This document shows positions 1 through 32,000 of a stretch of 32,000 nucleotides of DNA, piece after piece (position 1 is the first letter of the stretch; each line of letters starts with the position of its first letter). The DNA is taken from the NCBI GenBank assembly GCA_003568775.1, contig MWMI01000001.1:30001-62000 (forward strand), read 5' to 3'. Made by a program: the position numbers and the translations under genes. The stretch comes from Candidatus Nanoclepta minutus. GTDB lineage: Archaea; Nanobdellota; Nanobdellia; Nanobdellales; Nanobdellaceae. The notes beneath the pieces were generated by a model. It worked only from the letters and a program-made list of their open reading frames with translations. It made no database searches and was not told the DNA's origin.

Positions 1-1719
1 AGGAAAATAGAAGTAGATGAAATTATAATTCCATTACCGGTATTAGCAGAGCTCCAGCATCAAGCTAATAAGGGATTAGATAAAGGATTCGTTGGTTTAA
101 GGGAAGTACAAAAATTGAGGGAACTTTCGGGGAGATATGGATATAAGATCTTGATATTAGGGGAATATCCAAGGGAGGAAGATATAAAGTTTGCAAAAAT
201 AGGCAAAATAGACTTTTCAATATTAGAAATTGCCAAGAGGATTGGGGGAACCTTGTTTACATCAGATAGGGTTCTCTATGAGCTATCCTTATCTTACGGT
301 GTAGATGCGAGATACGTAAGTTTGGTTACATCTGAAAGACCATCCTATGAAAGGTACTTTACCGAAGATACGATGTCCATACATATAATAGAGGGCTGTA
401 AAATAAAAAGGAAGAGGGGTAGCCCAGGGAATTGGTATATAGAAGAAATAGATGTTTCTATGGATAGAAAATCTATAGAAGATCTAATAGAGGAAATAAT
501 AAGCTTAGCTAGATCCAGGAAGGATAGTTTTATAGAGATAGAGAAGCCCTATAGCATCATCGTTCAACAAGGTATCTATAGGATAGTTATCGTAAAACCT
601 CCTTTATCGAGTAACTATGAAATAACGATTGTGAGACCAATAACAAAGAAGAAGCTAGAAGATTATAGGTTAAGTGAACGTTTGTTGGATAGGCTAGAGA
701 AGAGTGCAGAAGGGATAATTATAGCTGGAAGACCAGGATCTGGAAAGTCTACTTTTGCTCAGGCTTTAGCTGAATGGTATAAGGAAAAGGGGAAGATTGT
801 AAAGACTGTGGAATCTCCTAGAGATCTAATAGTTTCTCCAGATATTGTCCAATATTCAAAAAATTTTGCTAAGTTTGGTGAAATACATGATATCCTTCTA
901 CTATCTAGACCGGATTATGTAATATTTGATGAAATGAGAACAACAGAAGACTTTAGGTTATACATAGATTTAAGGTTTGCGGGAGTTGGTATGATAGGTG
1001 TTGTGCATGTGGAGAGACCTATAGATGCCATCCATAGATTGATTTCGAGAACGGAATTGGGTATAATCCCACATATAGTAGATACGATAATATTCTTAGA
1101 GAAGGGGAACATAGAGGAGGTTTATACGTTATCCTTAAAAGTTAAGGTTCCTACAGGAATGGTTGAAGAGGATTTGGCTAGACCGGTTGTTGAAGTTAGG
1201 AACTTTATTACGGATGAGTTAGAGTATGAGATATATACTTTTGGGGAGGAGATTGTTGTAGTACCAATAAAGAGAGTTGAAAAGGATAAGCTATCCTTAT
1301 TATTGTCGGAAATACTCAAGGAGAAATTCAGTTCTAAGTATGAGGAGGTTACAATAGAGGTTAGGGGAAATACCATTGTCTTTATCTTGCCTAAAAACCT
1401 TAAAAAGAGGTTTTTAAAGAATGAAAAGAGTTTTTTAAGGAAGCTAAAGTATTCTTATGGATTTAACATTGAAGTAGTTTCTAAGAAGGATCTATCGTTT
1501 TTTCAATTGAAAAGGTATGAGATAAGAGACGGCTATATTATTTTAGATTTTGGAAAAGAACTTGCCAGAGAAAAAGTTCTAATAGTATCGGATGATAATG
1601 TAATTGCAAAATTGAACTTGGATAAAAGAGGATTAGTAAAGATAGATATCAATTCCCCAATAGGCAATAAAATAAGAGAAATTCTATCATCAAAAGGAAA
1701 AATTTATGCGAAAATTTAG
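1..1719 (+). CDS. PIN-domain / P-loop ATPase with KH-like C-terminal region (archaeal COG1855-type PilT-family ATPase), 5'-partial
   Basis: Frame 1 is open from nt 1 with no stop before the first ATG at 115, so the gene starts upstream of the window. The N-terminal part (IIIPLPVLAELQHQANKG ... TSDRVLYELS) looks like a PIN domain. It is followed by Walker A GRPGSGKST and a Walker B-like YVIFDEMR. The domain order matches conserved archaeal PIN-ATPase-KH proteins. Confidence 0.7.
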   Translation, partial: RKIEVDEIIIPLPVLAELQHQANKGLDKGFVGLREVQKLRELSGRYGYKILILGEYPREEDIKFAKIGKIDFSILEIAKRIGGTLFTSDRVLYELSLSYGVDARYVSLVTSERPSYERYFTEDTMSIHIIEGCKIKRKRGSPGNWYIEEIDVSMDRKSIEDLIEEIISLARSRKDSFIEIEKPYSIIVQQGIYRIVIVKPPLSSNYEITIVRPITKKKLEDYRLSERLLDRLEKSAEGIIIAGRPGSGKSTFAQALAEWYKEKGKIVKTVESPRDLIVSPDIVQYSKNFAKFGEIHDILLLSRPDYVIFDEMRTTEDFRLYIDLRFAGVGMIGVVHVERPIDAIHRLISRTELGIIPHIVDTIIFLEKGNIEEVYTLSLKVKVPTGMVEEDLARPVVEVRNFITDELEYEIYTFGEEIVVVPIKRVEKDKLSLLLSEILKEKFSSKYEEVTIEVRGNTIVFILPKNLKKRFLKNEKSFLRKLKYSYGFNIEVVSKKDLSFFQLKRYEIRDGYIILDFGKELAREKVLIVSDDNVIAKLNLDKRGLVKIDINSPIGNKIREILSSKGKIYAKI

Positions 1720-4802: not shown

Positions 4803-5393
4803 ATGGCGGTAACAAACCGGGATATAAGATGTAGGACAATGGACGATCTGTTAGTAACATTAGAGAGTGTAGTACCAGAAGAGGATAAGGTAATGTGCTT
4901 AAGAGACATGGGAATTACTAACATACATAAATATGGAGAATATATGGCAAATTTAGAAAAATCTATTAAAGAAAAAGAAGAAAGAAAAAAAGAGCTAGAA
5001 TCTATAGTGGAATTAGAAAAGGAAAAGAGTGATATAAGGTATGCTCCAATTGAACTTTTACCAGGAACGCTATTAGCTTATGTTGCTTATAAATTTTTCG
5101 AAGCTTCTGCAATGAATATCGTCGAAAATTATAAATATTATGGATTAGGCGCTTATGTTGGTTCGGTTATAACAAGTTTAATTGGTCTTTGTATAGGTAT
5201 ACCCGGAGCAGCTCTTCTTTGTGGTGCTTTTAAAGATATAAAAAACTATATTAAAGCGAAATATATTGAGCATAAAATAGGAAAAATTAACGTAGAAGAA
5301 TTGAAAAAAGAGTTGAATAGACTAGGAGAAGATCTGAATAAAGAGAGAGAGTTATACAGTTTATTAAAGAATTATTATAATAAGATATTTTAA
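4803..5393 (+). CDS. hypothetical membrane protein with flanking coiled-coil segments
   Basis: Long ORF in an otherwise empty interval. It has K/E-rich helices (KSIKEKEERKKELESIVELEKEK; VEELKKELNRLGEDLNKEREL) flanking two hydrophobic segments (LLPGTLLAYVAYKFF; GAYVGSVITSLIGLCIGIPGAALLCGAF). I recognise no family, and the start may be the internal MDDLL. Confidence 0.5.
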   Translation: MAVTNRDIRCRTMDDLLVTLESVVPEEDKVMCLRDMGITNIHKYGEYMANLEKSIKEKEERKKELESIVELEKEKSDIRYAPIELLPGTLLAYVAYKFFEASAMNIVENYKYYGLGAYVGSVITSLIGLCIGIPGAALLCGAFKDIKNYIKAKYIEHKIGKINVEELKKELNRLGEDLNKERELYSLLKNYYNKIF

Positions 5394-5473
5394 TGTAGAT
5401 AAAAATAGACCTCTTTATTTTTAATTATTTTTTAAAATTTTTATCAGAGATACTCTTAACAATTTTCTTAATA

Positions 5474-5480
5474 TTTTTAT
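5474..5480 (+). promoter_or_regulatory. TATA-box-like element for the C/D sRNA - tRNA-Leu unit
   Basis: ATATTTTTATG is centred about 24 nt upstream of the C box at 5501. It is nearly identical to the TAATTTTTATC element found the same distance upstream of tRNA-Ile. Confidence 0.4.
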
Positions 5481-5500
5481 GAAGCATAATAGTTATATAG

Positions 5501-5549
5501 ATGATGAAGATTCGGGGCCTTGAATGGTGAAGAAAAGGTTCCATCCTGA
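5501..5549 (+). ncRNA. C/D box sRNA (2'-O-methylation guide)
   Basis: Textbook archaeal architecture in order: C box AUGAUGA (5501-5507), 12-nt guide AGAUUCGGGGCC, D' UUGA (5520-5523), 3-nt spacer, C' GUGAAGA (5527-5533), 12-nt guide AAAGGUUCCAUC, D box CUGA (5546-5549). It is intergenic, has a TATA-like element upstream, and sits in a GC-enriched patch. Confidence 0.65.
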
Positions 5550-5553
5550 GAGA

Positions 5554-5637
5554 GCGGGGGTGCCCGAGAGGTCAAAGGGGTCGGGTTGAGGTCCCGATGG
5601 ATTAGGTCCGTCCGGGGTTCGAATCCCCGCCCCCGCA
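5554..5637 (+). tRNA. tRNA-Leu (anticodon GAG), class II with long variable arm, no encoded CCA
   Basis: Acceptor GCGGGGG/CCCCCGC, 3-bp D stem CCC/GGG, anticodon stem TCGGG/CCCGA with loop TTGAGGT (GAG), 15-nt variable arm TGGATTAGGTCCGTC, T arm CGGGG-TTCGAAT-CCCCG, discriminator A. Total 84 nt. Confidence 0.93.
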
Positions 5638-5738
5638 TAGATTGTGATGAATAAAAGGCTCTAAACGTTTACTGTGATACTTCTATGTAAGGTCTCATCC
5701 CAGTATAGCTTTTATTCCTTTAAACGAATTAAATAATA

Positions 5739-7496
5739 ATGCTAATAATAGCAGAAAAACCGTCAGTTGCCAGAAACATTTCATACTTCTTATCCAATGG
5801 AAACTATAGGAGAATAAAGTTTTCTAATGGAATTTATTATTATTTCTTGAAATTGGATGGGGAAAACATTTTTGTTGTTCCATCTATAGGACATTTATAT
5901 ACAATCTCTGATATGAAGAGGGATTTTAGTTATCCAACCTTTAACTATAAATGGGTCCCCTCTTATTATGAGGATAGAATATTCATAAAGAAAAAATATA
6001 TCGAGATGTTTAGACAATTTTCCAATGAAGATAAAGTAGTTTTAGCTACAGATTATGATATAGAAGGAGAGTTGATAGGATATAACATAATAAGGTTTGC
6101 TTTGAATAGAAGGGATGCTAATAGGATGATATTCTCCGCAATTACTAAAAAAGATATATTAAATTCTTTCTATAATCAAAGGGATAATATAGATTACGGA
6201 ATGGCAATAGCTGGAGAAGTTAGGCATATAGTTGATTGGTTATATGGTATAAACCTCTCCAGGATACTTACAAGATCGCTCTGGCATTATACAAAGGATT
6301 ATATCTTAAGTATAGGAAGGGTTCAGGGACCAACCTTAAAAATAATCTTAGAAAGGGAGAAAGAAATAGAAAATTACAAACCCGAGGAGTATTATGTTCT
6401 ATCCGCAGTTATATTGAAGGATAACTTAAAGATAAAGGCAGTTTATAGGGAAAAATTGAAGAGTAGATCGGAAGCAGAGGATATAAAGAAGAGGATTGGA
6501 AAAAGTGTTAAAGTAATTGATGTAAAAGTAGAAAAGTTATCAGAAGCTCCTCCCCATCCCTATAACCTAACGAACATCCAAGTAGATGCTTATAAACTAT
6601 ATAAAATATCCCCAAAATCAACCTTAGATATCCTGCAGAGTTTATATGAGAGGGGATACGTTTCATATCCCAGGACATCTTCTGAAAGACTTCCGGATAC
6701 AATAGACTTCAGAAGTATAATAGAGAATTTAGGTGAGATAAGCACATACAGAAGATTTTCAGAAGCTTTGGTCAGTAAAAGGGTTTTAAGACCAAACAAT
6801 GGAAAGAAGGAAGATGTCCATCCAGCAATACATCCAACAGGTATAATCCCATCTAATTTATCTAAAAAAGAGTTTTTGATATATGATTTAGTTGTTAGAA
6901 GGTTCTTTGCAACTTTTATGGATCCTGCAATCTTGGAGAGGAATATAGTTCTATTTAGTAACGGTTTAGAGTTTGATTACAAGAAGTGTATTAGTAAGGG
7001 GTGGATGGTTGTATATTGGAATATTCTATCGAAGGTTTTCCTGGAAATTAACTTTAAGGTTGGGGAAGTTTTGAACGTTGAGAAGGTATCTATAAATAAG
7101 AAGAAGACTCCTCCACCTCCTAGATATAACCAAGCTTCCCTTATAAAGAAGATGGAGGAATATAACCTGGGTACCAAATCCACGAGGGCGGAGGTTATTT
7201 CTATATTATATAATAGGAATTATATCGATGGTAGATCCATAAGGCTTACGAAACTAGGGGAGAAAGTGATCGATATATTCGAGAGATACTTTCCAGAAAT
7301 ACTTGATATAAACCTTACAAGAAAAATAGAAGATAAATTGGAGTTAATTATGAAGAATCCGGATTCTTCAATAAAAGATGAGGTTATAGGAGAAGTTATA
7401 GAGATTATAAAGCAAATATCTAATGGGTTGGATGAAAAAAAGATCGGGAAGGAGATCTATGATGCCATAAAATTACTTAATTCCAATAATACTTAA
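5739..7496 (+). CDS. topA: type IA DNA topoisomerase (archaeal TopA / Topo III-like), no zinc-ribbon tail
   Basis: Toprim motifs MLIIAEKPSVARNI and DYDIEGE, the GRVQGPTL motif, and the active-site tyrosine context GYVSYPRTSS (Topo III-type rather than the reverse-gyrase ITYxRTDS type). 585 aa with a single Cys. Confidence 0.9.
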   Translation: MLIIAEKPSVARNISYFLSNGNYRRIKFSNGIYYYFLKLDGENIFVVPSIGHLYTISDMKRDFSYPTFNYKWVPSYYEDRIFIKKKYIEMFRQFSNEDKVVLATDYDIEGELIGYNIIRFALNRRDANRMIFSAITKKDILNSFYNQRDNIDYGMAIAGEVRHIVDWLYGINLSRILTRSLWHYTKDYILSIGRVQGPTLKIILEREKEIENYKPEEYYVLSAVILKDNLKIKAVYREKLKSRSEAEDIKKRIGKSVKVIDVKVEKLSEAPPHPYNLTNIQVDAYKLYKISPKSTLDILQSLYERGYVSYPRTSSERLPDTIDFRSIIENLGEISTYRRFSEALVSKRVLRPNNGKKEDVHPAIHPTGIIPSNLSKKEFLIYDLVVRRFFATFMDPAILERNIVLFSNGLEFDYKKCISKGWMVVYWNILSKVFLEINFKVGEVLNVEKVSINKKKTPPPPRYNQASLIKKMEEYNLGTKSTRAEVISILYNRNYIDGRSIRLTKLGEKVIDIFERYFPEILDINLTRKIEDKLELIMKNPDSSIKDEVIGEVIEIIKQISNGLDEKKIGKEIYDAIKLLNSNNT

Positions 7497-14564: not shown

Positions 14565-15371
14565 ATGGCGAAGATAGTTATAACGGATAAGCATATACTA
14601 GTTATTGTATTTGCTATATCTATTTTATCCCTCCTATTAGGACTGTTTAATACCTATCAGGTTTATAGCATTGCAAGTTCTATTAGCATTTATAATAGCC
14701 TATCCACAATAAATCTACCATTTTTAAGTGTTTTAAACCCGGTTTATGGAAATTCTTCTAGTATATTAATTTTTGAGTATTTAGATTATCTCTGTCCATA
14801 CTGTGCGAAGTTTGAGGTTGAAACCTTCCAGAAATTGAAGGAGAAGTATATTGATAGAGGGAGGGTTAGCTATGTTGTGAAGAACTTTATTGTTCACGGA
14901 CAGGATGCCGTTAATCTAGCTTTATATGCATCATGCATATACAGCAATAATGGACCAAGTGAATATCAGGATTTTAAAGAGAAAATATATAGAGCCCTTT
15001 ACGATTCTATATTTGTTAAGAGAAATTATACGGAGTTTCAGAGTTCACTAGAAAGTATATTGTCTGGTTATAATATTGAAAGGTGTTTGAACAATAGCTC
15101 CTTTGTAAACTTGACTATGCAGGTATTGAGTATAGATACTAATGAAGCTATGGTCTACAATTTAGAAGGAACTCCAGGATTCTTAATTTTGATAAGGAAA
15201 GATTTATTACCTGAAGAAAAGCTTAGGGAAGTTAAAAAATTGCTTGATAGCTATAAAAGTAGGGGTATGAGCTATTCAATGTGGTTATCTTCTGATAGAA
15301 ACTACGTTGTTATAAGCTTTGCTGGGGCTATGTCATTCGATTTCTTCGATAAGTTCCTTAGCGTTATTTAA
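14565..15371 (+). CDS. membrane-anchored DsbA/thioredoxin-fold thiol:disulfide oxidoreductase
   Basis: N-terminal hydrophobic anchor (ILVIVFAISILSLLLGLF) followed by a thioredoxin-like active site in DsbA context (ILIFEYLDYLCPYCAKFE) and a later GTPGF cis-Pro-type motif. Confidence 0.65.
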   Translation: MAKIVITDKHILVIVFAISILSLLLGLFNTYQVYSIASSISIYNSLSTINLPFLSVLNPVYGNSSSILIFEYLDYLCPYCAKFEVETFQKLKEKYIDRGRVSYVVKNFIVHGQDAVNLALYASCIYSNNGPSEYQDFKEKIYRALYDSIFVKRNYTEFQSSLESILSGYNIERCLNNSSFVNLTMQVLSIDTNEAMVYNLEGTPGFLILIRKDLLPEEKLREVKKLLDSYKSRGMSYSMWLSSDRNYVVISFAGAMSFDFFDKFLSVI

Positions 15372-18792: not shown

Positions 18793-19068
18793 TTGATGGC
18801 CCTGATAGGTAGGAGGATAATAAAAAATAGGAGGAATATGGAAATGATATCCTGTCCACTATGTGGACATGTTTTCTATTCTACAAAGCAGTATACGAAG
18901 CACCTTAATAAATCACATTTAAGGAAAGTTCCAAAGGATAAGAGGAGAAGGAAGAAGATGCTTAAAGGACTTCTAATATTGAAGATAAAGAAAGAAAATA
19001 ATATAGAGTTAGAGAAATATGAAAAAATATTGGAACTAAAGTCTAAACTTAATAATATTAAGCTGTAA
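18793..19068 (+). CDS. small C2H2 zinc-finger protein with basic tail
   Basis: CPLCGHVFYSTKQYTKHLNKSH is a classical C2H2 finger, followed by KDKRRRKK. The likely true start is ATG 18838 or 18844 (MEMISCPLCGH), just downstream of a GGAGG motif at 18830-18834. Confidence 0.5.
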   Translation: MMALIGRRIIKNRRNMEMISCPLCGHVFYSTKQYTKHLNKSHLRKVPKDKRRRKKMLKGLLILKIKKENNIELEKYEKILELKSKLNNIKL

Positions 19069-20293: not shown

Positions 20294-20348
20294 ATTATTT
20301 TAATTTAAGGTTTTTTAGGTAACAGGTTTTTTGATAAATTATTTTATT

Positions 20349-20421
20349 TGGGCCCGCGGGGATTCGAACCCCGGTCAATGGGTCTGGAGCCCACCGTCCT
20401 ACCTGGCTAGACTACGGGCCC
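20349..20421 (-). tRNA. tRNA-Trp (anticodon CCA), intron-less, no encoded CCA
   Basis: The reverse complement folds as acceptor GGGCCCG/CGGGCCC, D arm GTCT-AGCCAGGTA-GGAC, anticodon stem GTGGG/CCCAT with loop CTCCAGA (CCA), T arm CGGGG-TTCGAAT-CCCCG, discriminator A. Total 73 nt. Confidence 0.92.
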
Positions 20422-20430
20422 ATTCATATA

Positions 20431-21748: not shown

Positions 21749-22170
21749 TAAATCTTATATGTTACCGGGGATTCTGCACCACAAGCTTCGCATTTTATGA
21801 AAGTTATCCTATCTTTTTTAACTAATACTGTATCCAACTTCTTGCATATAGGACATCTCACAAAATTTTCAATGAATTTATCTATTTTGGACTTTATAAT
21901 ATCTATGGAAATTTTTTTCTGTATTATTATAATGTTGTTTTCTATTTTACATCCTACATTTAGCTCTTTCTGTAAGAATTTCATTAATAGTTTAATATCT
22001 CTCCTTAATTTTTCTAATATCTCCTTTGTATTTTCTATATATGTAAATTTACCATGATAACTGATTTTTGGTAACGGTATTTCTATCTCTCCCTCTCCTT
22101 TTTTCAATACCTTTCCCTTCTCTTCTAGTTTTTTATATGCTTCATCTAACAATTTTAAATAGGATTTCAT
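21748..22170 (-). CDS. aif2B: translation initiation factor aIF-2 beta
   Basis: YLKLLDEAYKKL N-terminal helix, a central domain, and the C-terminal zinc ribbon VRCPICKKLDTVLVKKDRITFIKCEACGA. 140 aa. Confidence 0.9.
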   Translation of the reverse strand: MKSYLKLLDEAYKKLEEKGKVLKKGEGEIEIPLPKISYHGKFTYIENTKEILEKLRRDIKLLMKFLQKELNVGCKIENNIIIIQKKISIDIIKSKIDKFIENFVRCPICKKLDTVLVKKDRITFIKCEACGAESPVTYKI

Positions 22171-22730
22171 ATAACTTTGTATTTATTTGAAGAAACTTCA
22201 TAAATTTCACCAACGGATAAGAGGTCCTCTATGTATTTCCTTAGGCTATCTTCATCTAAGTCAAAGTATTCCTTTATTTCATCAAATGAAACACCTTCCC
22301 CCTTATCGCTCTCTTTTATGAACTTTAATATATCCTTTCTTATATCCCTTATATCAAATTCAATCTTTTCCTCTTGAACTTCCTTTTTTTCTTCAATTTT
22401 TGTTTTCTTTTTTGTTCTTTTCTTTAATTCCATTAAAAATAATTTTTTCCATAGAATTTCATCCTTTATATCTTCTATTTTTATCAATTTATTTATATAA
22501 ACATAATTATTACCCTGAAATTCCTTTATTTTTCCCAATATTATAACGCTTGAAAATTTATCCACGTTTATGGGTTCATATAAGATCGATTCAAAGTAGC
22601 CCTTCGAATCTAGGCATTTAATTTTTATATATTTCCTTTCGTTAAGTATCTCCACTACCTTCCCTATTAGAGCAACGTTTTTATTAGTATATTCTCCTAT
22701 TTCCGATGATAATATTGGTTTATAGTGCAT
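22167..22730 (-). CDS. OB-fold plus C-terminal winged-helix protein, RPA32/Rpa2-like (putative ssDNA-binding partner of the replisome)
   Basis: The N-terminus follows the RPA32/Stn1-type OB pattern (VALIGKVVEI...YIKIKCLDSKGYFESILYE...SVIILGKIKEFQGNNYVYINKLIKIEDIKDEILW). The C-terminus looks like a wH (GVSFDEIKEYFDLDEDSLRKYIEDLLSVGEIYEVSSNKYKV). It is start/stop-coupled to mcm upstream. Confidence 0.45.
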   Translation of the reverse strand: MHYKPILSSEIGEYTNKNVALIGKVVEILNERKYIKIKCLDSKGYFESILYEPINVDKFSSVIILGKIKEFQGNNYVYINKLIKIEDIKDEILWKKLFLMELKKRTKKKTKIEEKKEVQEEKIEFDIRDIRKDILKFIKESDKGEGVSFDEIKEYFDLDEDSLRKYIEDLLSVGEIYEVSSNKYKVI

Positions 22731-24852: not shown

Positions 24853-24943
24853 GGGCCCGTAGCTCAGTGGTGGAGCGCCGGCCTTATATGGTCGGGCTCC
24901 CTAAGACAGCCGGAGGTCGGGGGTTCGATTCCCCCCGGGCCCA
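24853..24943 (+). tRNA. tRNA-Ile (anticodon UAU) with a 19-nt intron at the canonical 37/38 position
   Basis: Acceptor GGGCCCG/CGGGCCC, D arm GCTC-AGTGGTG-GAGC, anticodon stem CCGGC/GCCGG, T arm GGGGG-TTCGATT-CCCCC, discriminator A. The anticodon loop CTTATA is interrupted by TGGTCGGGCTCCCTAAGAC (24889-24907). Exon CUUA pairs with intron UAAG as a 4-bp helix flanked by 3-nt bulges UA|U and AC|A, a bulge-helix-bulge motif. The mature tRNA is 72 nt. Confidence 0.85.
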
Positions 24944-26882: not shown

Positions 26883-26890
26883 AAAATAAC

Positions 26891-26898
26891 TTTTTAAG
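26891..26898 (+). promoter_or_regulatory. TATA-box-like element for the pilin-like operon
   Basis: TTTTTAAG is centred about 28 nt upstream of ATG 26922, consistent with a leaderless or short-leader transcript. The whole argS/operon spacer is only 39 nt. Confidence 0.35.
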
Positions 26899-26921
26899 TT
26901 AAAAGATTTTAAATAATTCTT

Positions 26922-27128
26922 ATGAAAAAATCAGTTGAAATAGCTTTGGGTACGATAGTGCTTCTAATTGTAGCCCTAATAGTTTTAGTATCTATCATCT
27001 GGCTATATTATTTTGTTTATTCTAGCTCTTCTAGAGGAACATTAAACATAGGAAATGTAGTTGTAAATCAGACTAATCAAACAACCGAAATTTTAAAGAA
27101 TATAACAAACATAAGCATTCCGAAATGA
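26922..27128 (+). CDS. operon gene A: small prepilin-signal-like protein (helix plus glycosylation-sequon tail), unknown family
   Basis: 68 aa. MKKS then the hydrophobic helix VEIALGTIVLLIVALIVLVSIIWLYYFV, then a tail with four N-x-S/T sequons (NQT, NQT, NIT, NIS). First gene of the block. Confidence 0.6.
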   Translation: MKKSVEIALGTIVLLIVALIVLVSIIWLYYFVYSSSSRGTLNIGNVVVNQTNQTTEILKNITNISIPK

Positions 27129-27129
27129 T

Positions 27130-27543
27130 ATGAGGAGTATTTCTACGAGTATTATTGTAGTTTTGATCATTACCTTATTAGTTTTGATAAGTCTAATCGT
27201 CTATTTTTACAGTATATATTCTTCATATAGGGAGAGCAGCGAAAGTATTTCTTCATCAACGAACGAAAGTATGAACGAGTATCTCCTTAGGATGGAATGT
27301 ATAAATAAAAATATCTTCTATATTCAAAAGAAAGTAGAAGAGAGCGTTCTAAGTGGTTATTGCTCATATAATGTTGAAGTAGCTTGTAAGGATATATTTA
27401 TGAAGGACAAAGAACCTTACTATAATTGTACAGTAACTTGTATGGCAAGGACAGGTGCAAATGATTACTCAAGCATTATTTGTACTGTTGAATATAATTG
27501 TAAGAGCGATAAAGTTACAGATATAAAGTGTAAAATAAAGTAA
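27130..27543 (+). CDS. operon gene B: prepilin-signal-like, Cys-rich secreted/surface protein, unknown family
   Basis: 137 aa. The N-terminus MRS-ISTSIIVVLIITLLVLISLIVYFY parallels MRG-ISISDIV of gene J. There is a Ser-rich linker, then a globular part with 8 Cys. It starts 1 nt after the stop of A. Confidence 0.7.
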   Translation: MRSISTSIIVVLIITLLVLISLIVYFYSIYSSYRESSESISSSTNESMNEYLLRMECINKNIFYIQKKVEESVLSGYCSYNVEVACKDIFMKDKEPYYNCTVTCMARTGANDYSSIICTVEYNCKSDKVTDIKCKIK

Positions 27544-27549
27544 ATAAAA

Positions 27550-27717
27550 ATGAAGAAGAGATCTATTGCTATTGAAACGGTAGCATTTATTATCTTATCT
27601 TTGTTAGTCTTAATAGTTGGGATAATAATAGTTTATGGACTCTACAATACGAGTAGATATAATATACAGAAGCTTAACGAAACTTATAACAAGACCTACG
27701 AGGGAATTAACAAATAA
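27550..27717 (+). CDS. operon gene C: 55-aa prepilin-signal-like miniprotein (not in ORF track)
   Basis: Own translation gives MKKRSIAIETVAFIILSLLVLIVGIIIVYGLYNTSRYNIQKLNETYNKTYEGINK*. Its first 14 nt are identical to gene E. The tail has three sequons (NTS, NET, NKT). Its stop overlaps the ATG of D (TAATG). Confidence 0.55.
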   Translation: MKKRSIAIETVAFIILSLLVLIVGIIIVYGLYNTSRYNIQKLNETYNKTYEGINK

Positions 27718-27818
27718 TGGAGTTTACGGAGATACTTAAGATAATTCTATACGTTATCTTATTTGTTATAGGGGTATCAGCGATATTGTTTATAATTGGA
27801 AACGTTCTTAATATATAA
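27717..27818 (+). CDS. operon gene D: 33-aa single-helix microprotein (not in ORF track), paralog of F
   Basis: Own translation gives MEFTEILKIILYVILFVIGVSAILFIIGNVLNI*. Its N-terminus and junction sequence are duplicated at 28952-28983. Confidence 0.5.
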   Translation: MEFTEILKIILYVILFVIGVSAILFIIGNVLNI

Positions 27819-27821
27819 GAT

Positions 27822-28958
27822 ATGAAGAAGAGATCAGTAAGCTATGGAACTATTTTGGGCATTCTATTAGCTGTAATAGTATTTGTTTTTATAATAATAG
27901 TCTCAAGAAACATTTTCTATTCAGCTAACTACGCTGGTAGATGGGAATGCAAGTTTGCATATGCAATTTCTTCACCTTTAGGTTTGTTTAGCCAGGAAAG
28001 TGCAGTTGTACAACAGGCAGGAAATTGGATAGTAGCTGGAGTAATTTTAGGTACTGCTGCTACTCTTGCGGTGGGTACTTTAATTACGAAAAAATATGAT
28101 GTGAAAGGTATAAATTATGTTAGAGTTGAATCTGTTTCTTATAGCTCTTTTTGGACTTATTTTGAACGTTATACTTTAAAGGAAGCATTTTTAAAAACGG
28201 TAAAAAAGGTTTTTACCAATCAAAAGTTCTTAAAAGGGCTTGCAGCATCTGCTGCAGCTTCAGGGCTTTTGTATGGTTTAGCTTCAGCCTCTAATTCTAT
28301 TGCAGAGAATATGCAAAAACCTATACTAGAAGGTTTATGTAAACCAAAGTTTGAAGGATATATCGATACGAATGATCTTGAAAATCAAAATATTCTAGAT
28401 GAATGTATTACTAAGAACTTGAAAAGGGATATTTACAACATCAGTAAAGTAGAGTTCCTAAATAGTCTAGACAGTAGTAATAAAAAGCTTGCATGTGTCC
28501 TATATGAAATTTCTAAATTGGTTGTAAATACTTATGGGGAGACTATTGGAGCGAATGTTAAGGTCGGATACGGAAGAGTCCATTATGTCTTGTTCATTAA
28601 TTATTCTTTGGATAAGTATATATATCTATCGGATTTGATCGCAATGTTAGATTTATTGGGAATAAATTCCAATAAATCGTATTACGATATAATATATGAA
28701 AAAAGCTCAGCATTTGCTAAGGGAGAAGGAGATTTCTATAGGGCCTATAATAACTTCATATCCCAGAAGTTTAATAAAAAGATCTATATAAGTGATAAAG
28801 GATTACCAAAGATAGTTGTTTCTTGTATTAAAATAAGTGATAGTAATGTTGGAACATGTGGGAATGATGATACTATAATACTTGCTGATAAGGGATTATA
28901 TGGTATCTATATATTCTATGATGGCCAAGGAAGCATATTAATAAATTCCATCAAATAA
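27822..28958 (+). CDS. operon gene E: large prepilin-signal-like membrane/surface protein, unknown family
   Basis: 378 aa. MKKRS-VSYGTILGILLAVIVFVFIIIV, then two further Gly/Ala-rich hydrophobic segments (NWIVAGVILGTAATLAVGTLI; LAASAAASGLLYGLASA), 6 Cys, and a C-terminal Cys-loop plus YDG motif shared with H. Confidence 0.8.
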   Translation: MKKRSVSYGTILGILLAVIVFVFIIIVSRNIFYSANYAGRWECKFAYAISSPLGLFSQESAVVQQAGNWIVAGVILGTAATLAVGTLITKKYDVKGINYVRVESVSYSSFWTYFERYTLKEAFLKTVKKVFTNQKFLKGLAASAAASGLLYGLASASNSIAENMQKPILEGLCKPKFEGYIDTNDLENQNILDECITKNLKRDIYNISKVEFLNSLDSSNKKLACVLYEISKLVVNTYGETIGANVKVGYGRVHYVLFINYSLDKYIYLSDLIAMLDLLGINSNKSYYDIIYEKSSAFAKGEGDFYRAYNNFISQKFNKKIYISDKGLPKIVVSCIKISDSNVGTCGNDDTIILADKGLYGIYIFYDGQGSILINSIK

Positions 28959-29092
28959 TGGAGTTTTCGGAGTTTCTTAAGATCCTGGTTGCGATCTTAA
29001 TATTCATATTGGTTTTAGTATTCGTTATGATCTATGTGGCTCCAAACATTAGTATGGGCCTAGAAAAGATAAAGGAATCACAATGGCCGTAG
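28958..29092 (+). CDS. operon gene F: 44-aa single-helix microprotein (not in ORF track), paralog of D
   Basis: Own translation gives MEFSEFLKILVAILIFILVLVFVMIYVAPNISMGLEKIKESQWP*. Its ATG overlaps the stop of E (TAATG). Confidence 0.5.
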   Translation: MEFSEFLKILVAILIFILVLVFVMIYVAPNISMGLEKIKESQWP

Positions 29093-29412
29093 AGCGTGCT
29101 ATTGTAATAATCATCCTTTCATTTATAGGCCTAATAATAGTCTTATTCCTTATACTATACTTCTATAATTATCCAAGGAAGTATGCAGATTACTTTAATC
29201 TAACAAAACAGATAGAAAAAATATCTATCTTACCTTTTACCTTATATAAGAGGAAGAGAGGAGATACTATGTCATTCTTTATATTTTTAATATTAGCGAT
29301 AGTAGTAATAATTGCAGTAACATTGCTGTATTTTCTGTCCTATAAAGAAATAATTTCTATAGATGTTGGAAACAAGACTGAAGAGCTATTGAACATAACG
29401 GAAAGAACATGA
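29083..29412 (+). CDS. operon gene G: two-helix small membrane protein (possibly two helix-plus-tail units)
   Basis: 109 aa. Helix 1 is AIVIIILSFIGLIIVLFLILYFY, followed by a basic KRKRG. An internal ATG at 29269, preceded by GAGGAG, starts MSFFIFLILAIVVIIAVTLLYFL with a sequon tail (NKT, NIT). It overlaps F by 10 nt and H by 4 nt. Confidence 0.6.
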   Translation: MAVERAIVIIILSFIGLIIVLFLILYFYNYPRKYADYFNLTKQIEKISILPFTLYKRKRGDTMSFFIFLILAIVVIIAVTLLYFLSYKEIISIDVGNKTEELLNITERT

Positions 29413-30203
29413 AGGGGGTTATTGGTATTTTAATGAAAGTATTGTTTGAGATCATAGTTTTTATAATCATTATAATGCTGATAATTTATTCTATAAATGC
29501 CTTTGCTCTTTTATCTAATCTTGAGGATAAAAAATATATAAGCTTAGTTAGCTTTATTGAAAGTAACATAAAAGAATCTGGATCAAAGGTTTGGGAAGAT
29601 ACCGTTACATATAATCCATTTGTCTATACCCTTTACTTTAACTTTACAGACGGAAGAATATACCTATATAAATGTGATGTTGTTGAACAGAAGATGGTCT
29701 TTTACAATATTACACAAGATACAATGATAAAAGATTTGGAGAATAGCAACTGCTATCCTATTTATGTAAGTAGAGAAGTTTTAGATGACAAAGTAACAGT
29801 AAGGATAGAGGGAGGTTCTTTGATGGAATTAGAAAACAAGAGAAGTTTATATGTAAGTCTATATAATCTAAAATACTCGGAGGAAACTACTATAGTGAAT
29901 TATGGTGGGACGGAATCTACAATAGTAACTGTCTATGGGGCGAATATAAAGGATATTAGTACTAGCTTTACGATAAGCCAGAGAAGCATAATAAAAGATA
30001 CGTCCTCCTATTTGTTTGGATTAGGAGACAAAATATGGAAGGGTGCTATAGTTTCTTCGGATTGTAGTATGTATTCGGGATATGTTAGATGTATGCTTGA
30101 TTATAAATACCTGATTAATCAAGGTTTTCTATTTCCTGTAAAGCTAACTGTTATTGTTAATTATGATGGAGAAAGGTCTGAAGTAGTCCTAAAGGCAAAA
30201 TAG
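29409..30203 (+). CDS. operon gene H: prepilin-signal-like surface protein, unknown family
   Basis: 264 aa. MKG-VIGILMKVLFEIIVFIIIIMLIIY, then a beta-strand-rich-looking body with 4 Cys and a C-terminal Cys-loop plus NYDGERSEVVLKAK motif shared with E. Confidence 0.8.
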   Translation: MKGVIGILMKVLFEIIVFIIIIMLIIYSINAFALLSNLEDKKYISLVSFIESNIKESGSKVWEDTVTYNPFVYTLYFNFTDGRIYLYKCDVVEQKMVFYNITQDTMIKDLENSNCYPIYVSREVLDDKVTVRIEGGSLMELENKRSLYVSLYNLKYSEETTIVNYGGTESTIVTVYGANIKDISTSFTISQRSIIKDTSSYLFGLGDKIWKGAIVSSDCSMYSGYVRCMLDYKYLINQGFLFPVKLTVIVNYDGERSEVVLKAK

Positions 30204-30234
30204 TTTTTCATAACATAAATAATCAATATATATA

Positions 30235-31269
30235 ATGGACATTGGGGAAATGTTAAACATCCTATTGGCCGTATTTGTTATACTAATATCAATATTTTTG
30301 GCATTAGAACTGCCCTATTTATCCTTGAAATATTCTACTAATTCAAATCCCTTTGCTATATATCATGTTGCAGTTTCTTTAGACTATTTTTCTTCCTTTC
30401 CTGGAAACTTTTATGTAAAAATAGATTATCCAGGTATAGAAAATGTAGAATTTAGGATATCCAGTTATAAAATACAAAATAATTTAATTACTGGAAATTC
30501 ATATGTTTCTGAAGGTATTTGTAATATAAAGAATCATCTTGAAGATATAGCCTTCGATATTATTACATCTGTAATGTTTGCATTTTCTCCAATTAAATTA
30601 GAAGGAGAAGGGGCGGTAAAATCTGCTACAGAAGCTATTATAAAGACCTTGATTGAAGCTAGTAGAGTTTATGCTATTGGTGAAATACTTTCTCTTGGAT
30701 TTACAGCTTTTGGTTATATAGCTTCCGGTAACTTTATGGATGCTTTTAGGAACTTTGTCTTAAGGGTTAATAGAGACAGTATCGGATATTTTAGGGATAT
30801 TGTAATTGAAAAAGGTACTCAATTTACGGAGACTGCTGGTAGGATGATTGTTTCTACTGTTATAAGGCTAATATTGAAATCCCTTAACGTAATGGGACCA
30901 TGGGGATGGGTTATTTCCTTTACGGCTAATCTAGCTATAAGTTTAGCCGATAACGTATATAGCCTGGTAAGGGGGAATTCGGATGTAGAATACAACTGTT
31001 TAAAGGGTATTGTTGGAACAACGCAATACGTTTACGTAGAATTTAATAGGATAGACTTCTCTCAAAACCTTTATGTACCAATAGAATTCCAATATGTTAT
31101 TAAGGATGATCTGGTTTTAAGTAGAGTTGAAGGAGGTTGGTTGTATAAAGTTTATACAATGGACGAAAGTACAGATAAATATTATATACTAAATTACTTT
31201 GAGATCTCTAAGGATAGGGAAAGGATATTCGTTAGGCCAATTTATTCTGAAATAGCTAAAAGTAAATGA
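30235..31269 (+). CDS. operon gene I: N-terminally anchored membrane protein with internal Gly/Ala-rich hydrophobic segments, unknown family
   Basis: 344 aa. MDIGEMLNILLAVFVILISIFLALEL, then later hydrophobic stretches (VYAIGEILSLGFTAFGYIASG; VMGPWGWVISFTANLAISLA). 2 Cys. Confidence 0.8.
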   Translation: MDIGEMLNILLAVFVILISIFLALELPYLSLKYSTNSNPFAIYHVAVSLDYFSSFPGNFYVKIDYPGIENVEFRISSYKIQNNLITGNSYVSEGICNIKNHLEDIAFDIITSVMFAFSPIKLEGEGAVKSATEAIIKTLIEASRVYAIGEILSLGFTAFGYIASGNFMDAFRNFVLRVNRDSIGYFRDIVIEKGTQFTETAGRMIVSTVIRLILKSLNVMGPWGWVISFTANLAISLADNVYSLVRGNSDVEYNCLKGIVGTTQYVYVEFNRIDFSQNLYVPIEFQYVIKDDLVLSRVEGGWLYKVYTMDESTDKYYILNYFEISKDRERIFVRPIYSEIAKSK

Positions 31270-32000
31270 TGAGAGGGATTTCTATATCTGATATAGTACT
31301 ATATATAATAGCAACGGTAGTAATAGTCGGACTATCTTTTTACTTTGCTTTTTTTATAAGTGCGCAATATTCCGTATCTTTAAATTCAGATACGTATCTT
31401 TTATTTTTAAATAGCCTATATTCCTATAGGATAAACTATTGCTTATACAACATTACATCTAATCCCACCTATCTATTCTTCTTCCTTAAGGATATGGATT
31501 TTTCCAACATAAAAGGAATACATAACTGTTTTAGTAAAGTTATAACAAACGTTAGAGTTCTAGAAGGCAATTATTCTACCTATTCAGATGATGACTTGAA
31601 GAGACTCAGTTTGTCCATATGTGGCCAGGAGGATAGTAATTTCATAAGTTTTATAGAAAATAATTACAAAAATTGTGATATATTGATTTATAGAGAAAAG
31701 AACATTTCTTCAGTTCCAATATTTTCGTATTACGATATATATAACTCTAAGCTGGGATGGATAACTGAAACTGCAAGATCTCTCCTCGATCAGGAAGAAT
31801 CTCAGAAAGGTTTTTTGGAAGGATTACTAGAGAATATCTTTAAGGTTGTTTCTCCTATTGGTTATTTAGCATACGAGTATCTTAAGGATTACTATAAAAA
31901 CTTACTATTTGAGAGCTTGAAGACTAGTTCTGAAACCTTCATCAGCTGTAATTTGGATAGGGAATATTCAATATTTCCACTATATTCGGTTCAGAATCTG
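31266..32000 (+). CDS. operon gene J: protein with canonical archaeal class III (prepilin-type) signal, 3'-partial, unknown family
   Basis: It is absent from the ORF track because it has no stop in the window. My translation is open from ATG 31266/31269 to nt 32000: M(M)RGISISDIVLYIIATVVIVGLSFYFAFFISAQ... The ATG overlaps the stop of I (ATGA). Confidence 0.7.
   Translation, partial: MMRGISISDIVLYIIATVVIVGLSFYFAFFISAQYSVSLNSDTYLLFLNSLYSYRINYCLYNITSNPTYLFFFLKDMDFSNIKGIHNCFSKVITNVRVLEGNYSTYSDDDLKRLSLSICGQEDSNFISFIENNYKNCDILIYREKNISSVPIFSYYDIYNSKLGWITETARSLLDQEESQKGFLEGLLENIFKVVSPIGYLAYEYLKDYYKNLLFESLKTSSETFISCNLDREYSIFPLYSVQNL

Follow-up and report, generated by a model that had tools for sequence, protein, structure and literature searches.

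What is a run of closely packed, unannotated membrane-protein genes doing in a reduced, host-dependent genome, and could it encode a surface structure? The question is raised by one end of a 32,000-nucleotide (nt) stretch of DNA (hereafter the window) from Candidatus Nanoclepta minutus, a cultivated hot-spring nanoarchaeon, where an operon of small and large proteins lies between the genes for ArgRS and TYW3. Our answer is tentative. The block may be a lineage-specific cluster of genes for type IV filament (TFF)-like pilins or pseudopilins together with small membrane accessory proteins, a reading to which we give a probability of roughly 45%.

An earlier interpretation of the window (the original prediction) described ten co-directional genes, A to J, at this end. 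All ten reading frames are found where it placed them, and J was translated as well, but the block is longer. Beyond the window end we read on in Logan contig L001, which is identical (no mismatch in 12,592 nt) and on which J is followed by K, then L, then TYW3. The operon therefore comprises 12 genes, A to L, between a divergent ArgRS gene and a convergent TYW3 gene. Its features are as follows, with lengths in amino acids (aa) and a slash where a leader meets the helix.

26883 to 26921, + strand: putative operon promoter in the intergenic region between ArgRS and gene A, A+T-rich, with TATA-like boxes CTTTTTAAG (about -32 to -24) and TTTTAAATA (about -15 to -7 from the ATG), read from the sequence.
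26922 to 27128, + strand: gene A, 68 aa; start MKKS/VEIALGT, helix, short tail with four N-glycosylation sequons; candidate small pilin-like subunit.
27130 to 27543, + strand: gene B, 137 aa; N-terminal helix and a domain with eight cysteines; RIB35546.1, hypothetical.
27550 to 27717, + strand: gene C, 55 aa; start MKKRS/IAIETV, helix, tail with conserved sequons (LNETYNKT); candidate small pilin-like subunit.
27717 to 27818, + strand: gene D, 33 aa; single helix, acidic start MEFTE without a basic leader.
27822 to 28958, + strand: gene E, 378 aa; start MKKRS/VSYGT, helix, invariant stretch ANYAGRWECKFAYA, two Ala/Gly-rich, weakly hydrophobic segments, beta-rich C-terminal part.
28958 to 29092, + strand: gene F, 44 aa; single helix, start MEFSE.
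29083 to 29412, + strand: gene G, 109 aa; two-helix hairpin with a strongly basic loop, kept in five lineages.
29409 to 30203, + strand: gene H, 264 aa; predicted 52-residue N-terminal helix, then an all-beta domain.
30235 to 31269, + strand: gene I, 344 aa; acidic start MDIGE, helix, conserved beta-rich region, central amphipathic helical region.
31266 to 32000 in the window, ending at window-equivalent 32177, + strand: gene J, 303 aa; best class III-like signal.
Window-equivalent 32210 to 32665: gene K, 151 aa; start MRS/FISFF.
Window-equivalent 32662 to 34311: gene L, 549 aa; 13 cysteines.

The intergenic spacings from A to J are +1, +6, -1, +3, -1, -10, -4, +31 and -4 nt, with stop/start overlaps of the form TAATG at C/D and E/F and ATGA at G/H and I/J, all in agreement with the earlier description. 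That description had taken D, F, G and I for small single-helix proteins. D and F are single-helix proteins, but I has 344 residues and G has two helices. The 31-nt gap before I that it singled out is present in N. minutus and is not conserved, since in relatives the gaps before I and K measure 1 to 12 nt or the genes overlap. Internal promoters at these gaps, if any, would therefore be specific to N. minutus. Both gaps of about 31 nt, before I (window 30204 to 30234) and before K (L001 12770 to 12801), hold TATA-like A+T-rich boxes. Upstream of A, A+T-rich regions are likewise found in three relatives (L002, L004 and L007). Public records RIB35546 to RIB35550 (BXU00_00350 to 00370) match exactly and are annotated as hypothetical throughout, and near-identical copies are present in Nanoarchaeota archaeon NZ13-N. 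The exact sequence of C is absent from the protein collection, and no gene is called at its place in the locus table.

Relatives known from metagenomes and metagenome-assembled genomes (L002, L003/L004, L007 to L010 and L011 to L013) have the 12 genes in the same order between ArgRS and TYW3. At least five diverged Nanopusillaceae lineages keep the gene order, so that the synteny check proposed with the original prediction came out positive. Order, gene lengths and reading frames are retained at 24 to 75% amino-acid identity. For the same two genome pairs, identity is 40 to 75% and 24 to 50% in the operon versus 71 to 89% and 62 to 85% in the housekeeping neighbours, and the operon proteins diverge two to three times faster. 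From the retention of order and frame and from this identity pattern, it follows that the operon genes are real and under selection. A comparison of nonsynonymous with synonymous substitution (dN/dS) between L007 and L010 rests on 12 synonymous and 21 nonsynonymous substitutions, too few to inform. The 33-aa gene D is kept as an uncalled open reading frame (ORF) in L005 and L007. E is tandemly duplicated in the L007/L010 lineage (L007 7321 to 8424 and 8464 to 9525; L010 6474 to 7577 and 7617 to 8678), the two copies being 32% and 31% identical to N. minutus E. In L005/L006, genes C to L have been transferred together to a site downstream of AlaRS, and A and B remain beside TYW3 (L005 98 to 496 and 8094 to 13363), which suggests that A-B and C-L are separable modules. 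Just past TYW3 lies a further gene, M (153 aa, N-terminal helix, no family match; L001 15469 to 15930, + strand, window-equivalent about 34877 to 35338). M adjoins TYW3 at 54 to 68% identity in all lineages and stays there when the C-L block relocates.

The case for pilins begins at the N-termini. A Kyte-Doolittle scan of 19-residue segments within the first 30 residues found a strongly hydrophobic segment (mean 2.5 to 3.7) in all 12 operon products and in M, which confirms the helix originally described for every product. A comparable segment occurs in 1 of 26 other window proteins. Cross-lineage comparison of the operon proteins brings out two classes of N-terminus. In the first, a basic leader of two to five residues is followed by a small residue and the helix; J, K, C, A, E and G belong to it. 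The motifs are [KR][GSC]/[IL]S[IF][ST][DE] in J, with D or E at +5 in every sequence examined; [KR][SGN]/[FYI]ISF in K; [KR][SA]/[IVL][AS][IT][ED] in C (five of five lineages); [KR][ST]/VE[IL]A in A (four of four); R[SA]/[VI]S[YF]G in E (four of six sequences, and gone in one lineage); and R[ATS]/[IL]V in G. In C the acidic residue sits at +4, in A at +2. A basic and then a small residue before the helix are kept in J, K, C and A of all lineages examined, the small one swapping among G, S, A, C, T and N. That Gly, Ser, Ala and Cys replace one another at one fixed position as the residues around it vary suggests a constrained position, as the -1 site of a peptidase would be. When the class III signal pattern is relaxed to admit S, C, T or N at -1, it is found in A (4/4), C (5/5), J (5/5), K (5/5), G (5/5), E (4/6) and B (2/5). 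F, I, L and M have no match to the relaxed pattern, and D has one stray match within its helix (1/5) with no leader. In G, a basic stretch and a small residue precede each of the two helices (MAVER-A..., KRKRGDT-MSFF...). The protein looks like an in-frame fusion of two helix-first modules, the second helix following KRKRGDT with an internal Met start (MSFFIF...), and its orthologues in other lineages have equivalent [KR]-rich stretches that end in a small residue.

The helices are also related to one another. A, B and C share a homologous first stretch of about 40 residues followed by unrelated C-termini (hhalign probabilities 97%, 93% and 92%, the A helix scoring 97% against B and 93% against C), and E joins them weakly (80%). 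D and F are paralogues (88%). A common N-terminal helix with unrelated tails, as in A/B/C and D/F, is the pattern of pilin families and counts for the pilin reading. The AlphaFold2 model of H, built on a seven-sequence alignment (pLDDT 86, pTM 0.78), has an unbroken helix over residues 2 to 53 and then an all-beta domain, a predicted pilin-like "lollipop" architecture. Taken at face value, a helix unbroken through residue 53 would argue against cleavage after the hydrophobic core of H. The model of J (15-sequence alignment, pLDDT 80, pTM 0.65) has a helix at 7 to 33, a low-confidence break, a second helix at 41 to 64 and long beta-strands, with a helical insertion at 168 to 225 amid the strands.

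Composition tells us on which side of the membrane the remaining parts may lie. N-glycosylation sequons number 13.5 per 1,000 residues in the operon versus 3.1 in the other window proteins (4.4-fold, p = 3e-8), and cysteines 18 versus 8.1 (2.2-fold, p = 9e-5). Conserved sequons occur even in the tiny tails of A and C. The sole other N-terminally anchored protein in the window, a 268-aa product (14565 to 15371, + strand), combines an N-terminal membrane helix with a Thioredoxin_4 domain (E 9e-19) and is DsbA-like; it could plausibly catalyse disulfide formation in the Cys-rich operon proteins outside the cytoplasm. The enrichment in sequons and cysteines and this membrane-anchored thioredoxin-like protein point to operon C-terminal domains that would be extracytoplasmic, glycosylated and disulfide-bonded. 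A count of charges on either side of the helices (positive-inside) is too weak to fix the orientation of B, D, F, G, I and L.

Several results weigh against pilins and need to be set beside these. The second class of N-terminus is acidic and has no leader: D and F begin MEFxE, I begins MD[IV]G[ED], and B in most lineages begins MSE[IF]A. L starts with the non-canonical SYPAIALL. In all, five of the 12 operon proteins fall outside the class III scheme, and the residue before the helix is mostly Ser, sometimes Thr, Cys or Asn, versus the canonical Gly or Ala. A strict FlaFind-like pattern (a short charged leader ending in [KR]-[G/A] and then about 20 hydrophobic residues) is found in J in two of five lineages and in G in three of five, and in no other product. 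The canonical class III signal originally assigned to J is thus kept in all five lineages if Ser or Cys is allowed at -1, and in two under the strict Gly/Ala form. By the EppA-type criterion (Gln at +1, acidic +5), J has D or E at +5 throughout, but Ile or Leu at +1. The [KR]-[GS] motif first reported for A, B, C, E, H and J is kept in A, C, J and most E, but not in B or H. H keeps LF[ED]I at the start of its helix, and its MKG start is not conserved. The claim that B repeats the J-like MR-x-IS motif does not hold up, since the MRSIS start occurs in N. minutus only and MSE[IF]A[IF]N takes its place in other lineages. A basic residue ahead of the membrane helix is, moreover, to be expected of any signal anchor.

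Family searches do not supply what the motifs leave out. No model cutoff in Pfam, NCBIfam or PHROGs was reached by any product or by 38 orthologues, and the Pfam pilin families (PF07790, PF04021 and PF01917 among the models sought) were never matched. Profile searches of PDB sequences with E, H, I, J and the J N-terminus found no match. Foldseek comparison of the H and J models with PDB structures, solved pilins and archaellins included, found none either (E > 0.02, TM <= 0.14). The matches that recur below threshold are to generic N-terminal-anchor families and are driven by hydrophobicity. TIGR04205, a model with a class III signal, is hit by 5 of the 38 sequences (best E 0.0018, below its 65-bit cutoff; A at E 0.013, far below it), and UpsB by one sequence only (E 0.054). 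As originally supposed, then, the products belong to no recognisable family in Pfam, NCBIfam, PHROGs, PDB or Foldseek searches; by sequence they are ORFan families.

Their distribution is narrow. E has 12 homologues among 5.8 billion proteins in a single-sequence search, and H has six homologous clusters among 1.84 billion representatives in an exhaustive phmmer search. Profile searches returned 11 proteins for I, of the same clade only, and 15 for J. The homologues of these four proteins all fall within one small clade, which NCBI records label Nanopusillaceae, and no homologue from Nanoarchaeum, Nanopusillus acidilobi or Nanobdella was among the results. A scan of 185,579 species genomes added one locus, from a lineage already represented; scans of IMG/VR with the I and E profiles and two scans of metagenome contigs (I among the queries) gave no match.

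The machinery that a filament would need is likewise missing from the vicinity. In a search limited to the locus and not extended genome-wide, no secretion ATPase, FlaJ/TadC platform protein or prepilin peptidase was found in the 32-kb window, the 10 kb upstream or the 8 kb downstream, which for the window is what the original prediction had said. Five other lineages likewise have no gene for an ATPase, a platform protein or a peptidase in the roughly 10 kb flanking the operon on each side. One candidate was rejected. The ORF at 115 to 1719 (+ strand) scores above the cutoff of Pfam T2SSE, as a pilus ATPase might, but it is the PIN-domain Holliday-junction branch-migration ATPase PINA (586 bits to PRK13764; E 3e-121 to PDB 5f4h), and the full gene of 597 aa starts upstream of the window (L014 8198 to 9991).

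Weighing both sides, the pilin-like reading stands in part and is the most economical one. The leader motif in J, K, C, A and most E and the helix-beta model of H speak for it, and the lack of a pilin hidden Markov model (HMM) or fold match and the acidic starts of D, F, I and, in most lineages, B speak against it. We go no higher than the probability given above because no family assignment came out of the searches, Ser dominates at the putative -1 position, five of 12 proteins are off-scheme, and the basic residue would be expected of any anchor. The literature bears on the pilin reading as well. N. minutus is archaellated and has arl genes (PMC10117864), from which a class III signal peptidase would be expected to be encoded by the organism. 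PibD cleaves leaders down to three residues (PMC10117864) and is tolerant around the cleavage site (PMC10117864, PMC4187195); the operon leaders of three to five residues lie within this range, which counts for the pilin reading. EppA-type archaeal pilins and bacterial pilins typically have an acidic +5 (PMC4187195). The pilin locus of M. maripaludis likewise has no ATPase, platform protein or major pilin (PMC4187195). In a 2016 census, nanoarchaeal genomes carried a pilus-type ATPase for which cognate pilins were not identifiable (PMC4858521).

If the cluster does encode TFF-like proteins, the 12 products would insert in the membrane via their predicted N-terminal helices, and the leaders of A, C, E, J and K would be trimmed by the cell's own PibD/ArlK-type class III signal peptidase. 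The hydrophobic helices might then bundle as the core of a filament or a short pseudopilus, driven by an ATPase and a platform protein presumably encoded elsewhere in the genome, with the glycosylated, disulfide-bonded C-terminal domains facing outward. A and C would be candidates for bulk subunits; B, H, J, K and the 549-aa, Cys-rich L for minor or tip subunits; and D, F, G, E and I for a membrane-embedded base or assembly part. Fast sequence divergence would fit a surface structure that meets the host or the environment. A role for the operon in host contact is plausible, but it is speculation.

Among the closest known systems are the archaeal TFF pilin clusters (M. maripaludis Epd, Sulfolobus Ups and Aap). 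What they have in common with the operon is a set of proteins, small and large and presumably transcribed together, that start with a short charged leader and a hydrophobic helix to which conservation is limited, as well as heavy N-glycosylation potential and an acidic +5 (here in J) as in EppA substrates; pilin genes there may also lie apart from those for the ATPase and platform protein (PMC4187195, PMC4858521). However, the operon has no HMM or fold similarity to these clusters, the residue before the helix is mostly Ser, the leaders have only two to five residues, five of 12 proteins are off-scheme, and no peptidase, ATPase or platform gene lies in or near the cluster of any lineage. Bacterial operons of minor pilins and pseudopilins (GspG to GspK of the type II secretion system; FimU-PilVWXY1E of type IVa pili) also encode pilin-like proteins of diverse size with a common N-terminal helix. 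Their large members have inserted domains, which the helical insertion in the beta-sheet of the J model may parallel, and the large, Cys-rich product of the last gene, L, could act as a tip adhesin. Operon members may thus resemble GspK and PilY1. In contrast, there is no similarity in sequence or by Foldseek, the processing motif is another, and the organism here is an archaeon. Flp/Tad pilins resemble A and C, which are very small (55 to 68 aa), each a helix followed by a short tail and with an acidic residue close to where the helix starts (IAIE in C), but the operon has no G/XXXXEY motif, no Flp_Fap Pfam match and no Tad genes.

The main rival account makes the same proteins uncleaved signal-anchor (bitopic) glycoproteins that, with small membrane subunits, form a membrane-bound surface complex rather than a filament, perhaps associated with the envelope or S-layer or as part of a cone or portal for attachment. 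We regard this as a genuine possibility, though one we favor less than pilins. It accommodates the membrane helix of every product, the tiny, helix-only D, F and G (as complex subunits), the five families that have no basic leader, and Ser, Thr or Asn before the helix, which is atypical of prepilin peptidases. Neither the lack of a pilin HMM or fold match nor the lack of an assembly ATPase or platform protein nearby would surprise us in such a complex. There is also room for it in the biology. Nanoarchaeota are host-attached and make archaella, a second appendage, nanotubes and a cone-and-filament attachment organelle, of which only the archaellum has assigned genes; those of the Nanobdellota attachment organelle and nanotubes are unassigned in the literature (PMC11420986; bioRxiv 10.64898/2026.06.04.730037). 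However, a plain anchor has no need of a conserved small residue or of the acidic +5 in J, and it is pilins that typically combine paralogous N-terminal helices with unrelated tails. The 52-residue continuous helix modeled for H would resemble pilin alpha-1, though a helical stalk would look alike. As for the attachment organelle itself, it has been reported in several genera, whereas the operon families are limited to a small clade. This narrow range argues against the operon encoding that organelle, which is reported across the phylum, unless its components evolve beyond sequence recognition.

A bolder reading goes further. The cluster could encode a nanoarchaeal surface machine for host contact (the filament of about 8 nm and portal of the Nanobdellota attachment organelle, or the nanotubes) built of two kinds of helix-first subunit, some cut at a non-canonical [KR]-Ser and some leaderless, with Met-x-x-x-Glu/Asp (D, F, I) mimicking the N-terminus of a mature pilin. 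It would then represent a new branch or a hybrid of type IV filament assembly. We consider this unlikely, and nothing observed in the operon yet demands a new mechanism.

Less likely again is an arrangement like the Sulfolobus bindosome, in which E, H, I, J and L would be surface binding or uptake proteins held by small, pilin-like A, B and C for the capture of host nutrients. A, B and C, three small proteins whose N-terminal helices are paralogous and whose genes open the operon, do recall BasABC, and A has faint matches to the NCBIfam BasC model (2 of 38 sequences, E 0.011 to 0.11). The substrates of known bindosomes have short class III signals that PibD processes (PMC4187195), and N. minutus depends on its host for metabolites according to the literature. 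But the BasC match reaches 12 bits versus a cutoff of 260, no substrate-binding-protein domain, ABC transporter or BasE/F-like gene lies in or near the cluster, and the H and J models match no solute-binding fold. An integrated virus or mobile element encoding membrane or structural proteins has hardly any chance of being right: ORFans with membrane helices are common in archaeal viruses and there are weak, hydrophobicity-driven PHROGs and Pfam matches to small viral membrane proteins, but the reading is contradicted by a stable ArgRS-TYW3 position across lineages whose housekeeping identity is only 62 to 89%, by unremarkable G+C content, by the lack of any integrase, capsid or replication gene, and by the lack of a significant PHROGs match, a BFVD fold match for the J model or an IMG/VR relative, so that the homology to viral structural proteins named at the outset as a possible refutation was not found.

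DPANN genomes commonly contain clusters of hypothetical membrane proteins. This one is a concrete, conserved gene set in the cultivated Nanoclepta-Zestosphaera system and a candidate for the missing pilins. Should its Ser-type sites prove to be cleaved, archaeal prepilin peptidases would have a wider range of substrates than is known, and entire sets of pilins in DPANN genomes would be shown to escape standard tools. Should the proteins be something other than pilins, they would still form a conserved 12-protein surface complex of no recognised type in a minimal genome.

The surroundings of the operon set it apart. It was first described as the only non-housekeeping block in the window of a reduced, host-dependent nanoarchaeon, and the remainder indeed encodes housekeeping functions: PINA, ABCE1, NFACT, a topoisomerase, thymidylate kinase, FttA, proteasome, TBP, IleRS, EF-1alpha, S10, Nop5, fibrillarin, MCM, ArgRS and others. 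Housekeeping genes also fill the 10 kb that precede the window. In one relative (L002), a 342-aa protein with an N-terminal helix and a DUF2341 domain (5208 to 6236, + strand) is encoded beside ArgRS, about 2 kb upstream of the operon; it is absent from the same position in N. minutus. DUF2341 occurs in PilY-like adhesins of archaeal pilus loci (PMC4858521).

Some smaller features of the window complete the picture, beginning with three conserved-looking ORFs that have no Pfam match.

4803 to 5393, + strand: ORF of 196 aa, with no NCBIfam match either.
18793 to 19068, + strand: ORF of 91 aa, in which a CPLCG motif suggests a zinc ribbon.
22167 to 22730, - strand: ORF of 187 aa.
5554 to 5637: tRNA-Leu(GAG), ordinary.
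20348 to 20422: tRNA-Trp(CCA), ordinary.
24853 to 24943, + strand: tRNA of 91 nt (Rfam 66.7 bits), in which ARAGORN reads no normal anticodon and which probably carries an intron, as is common in Nanoarchaeota.

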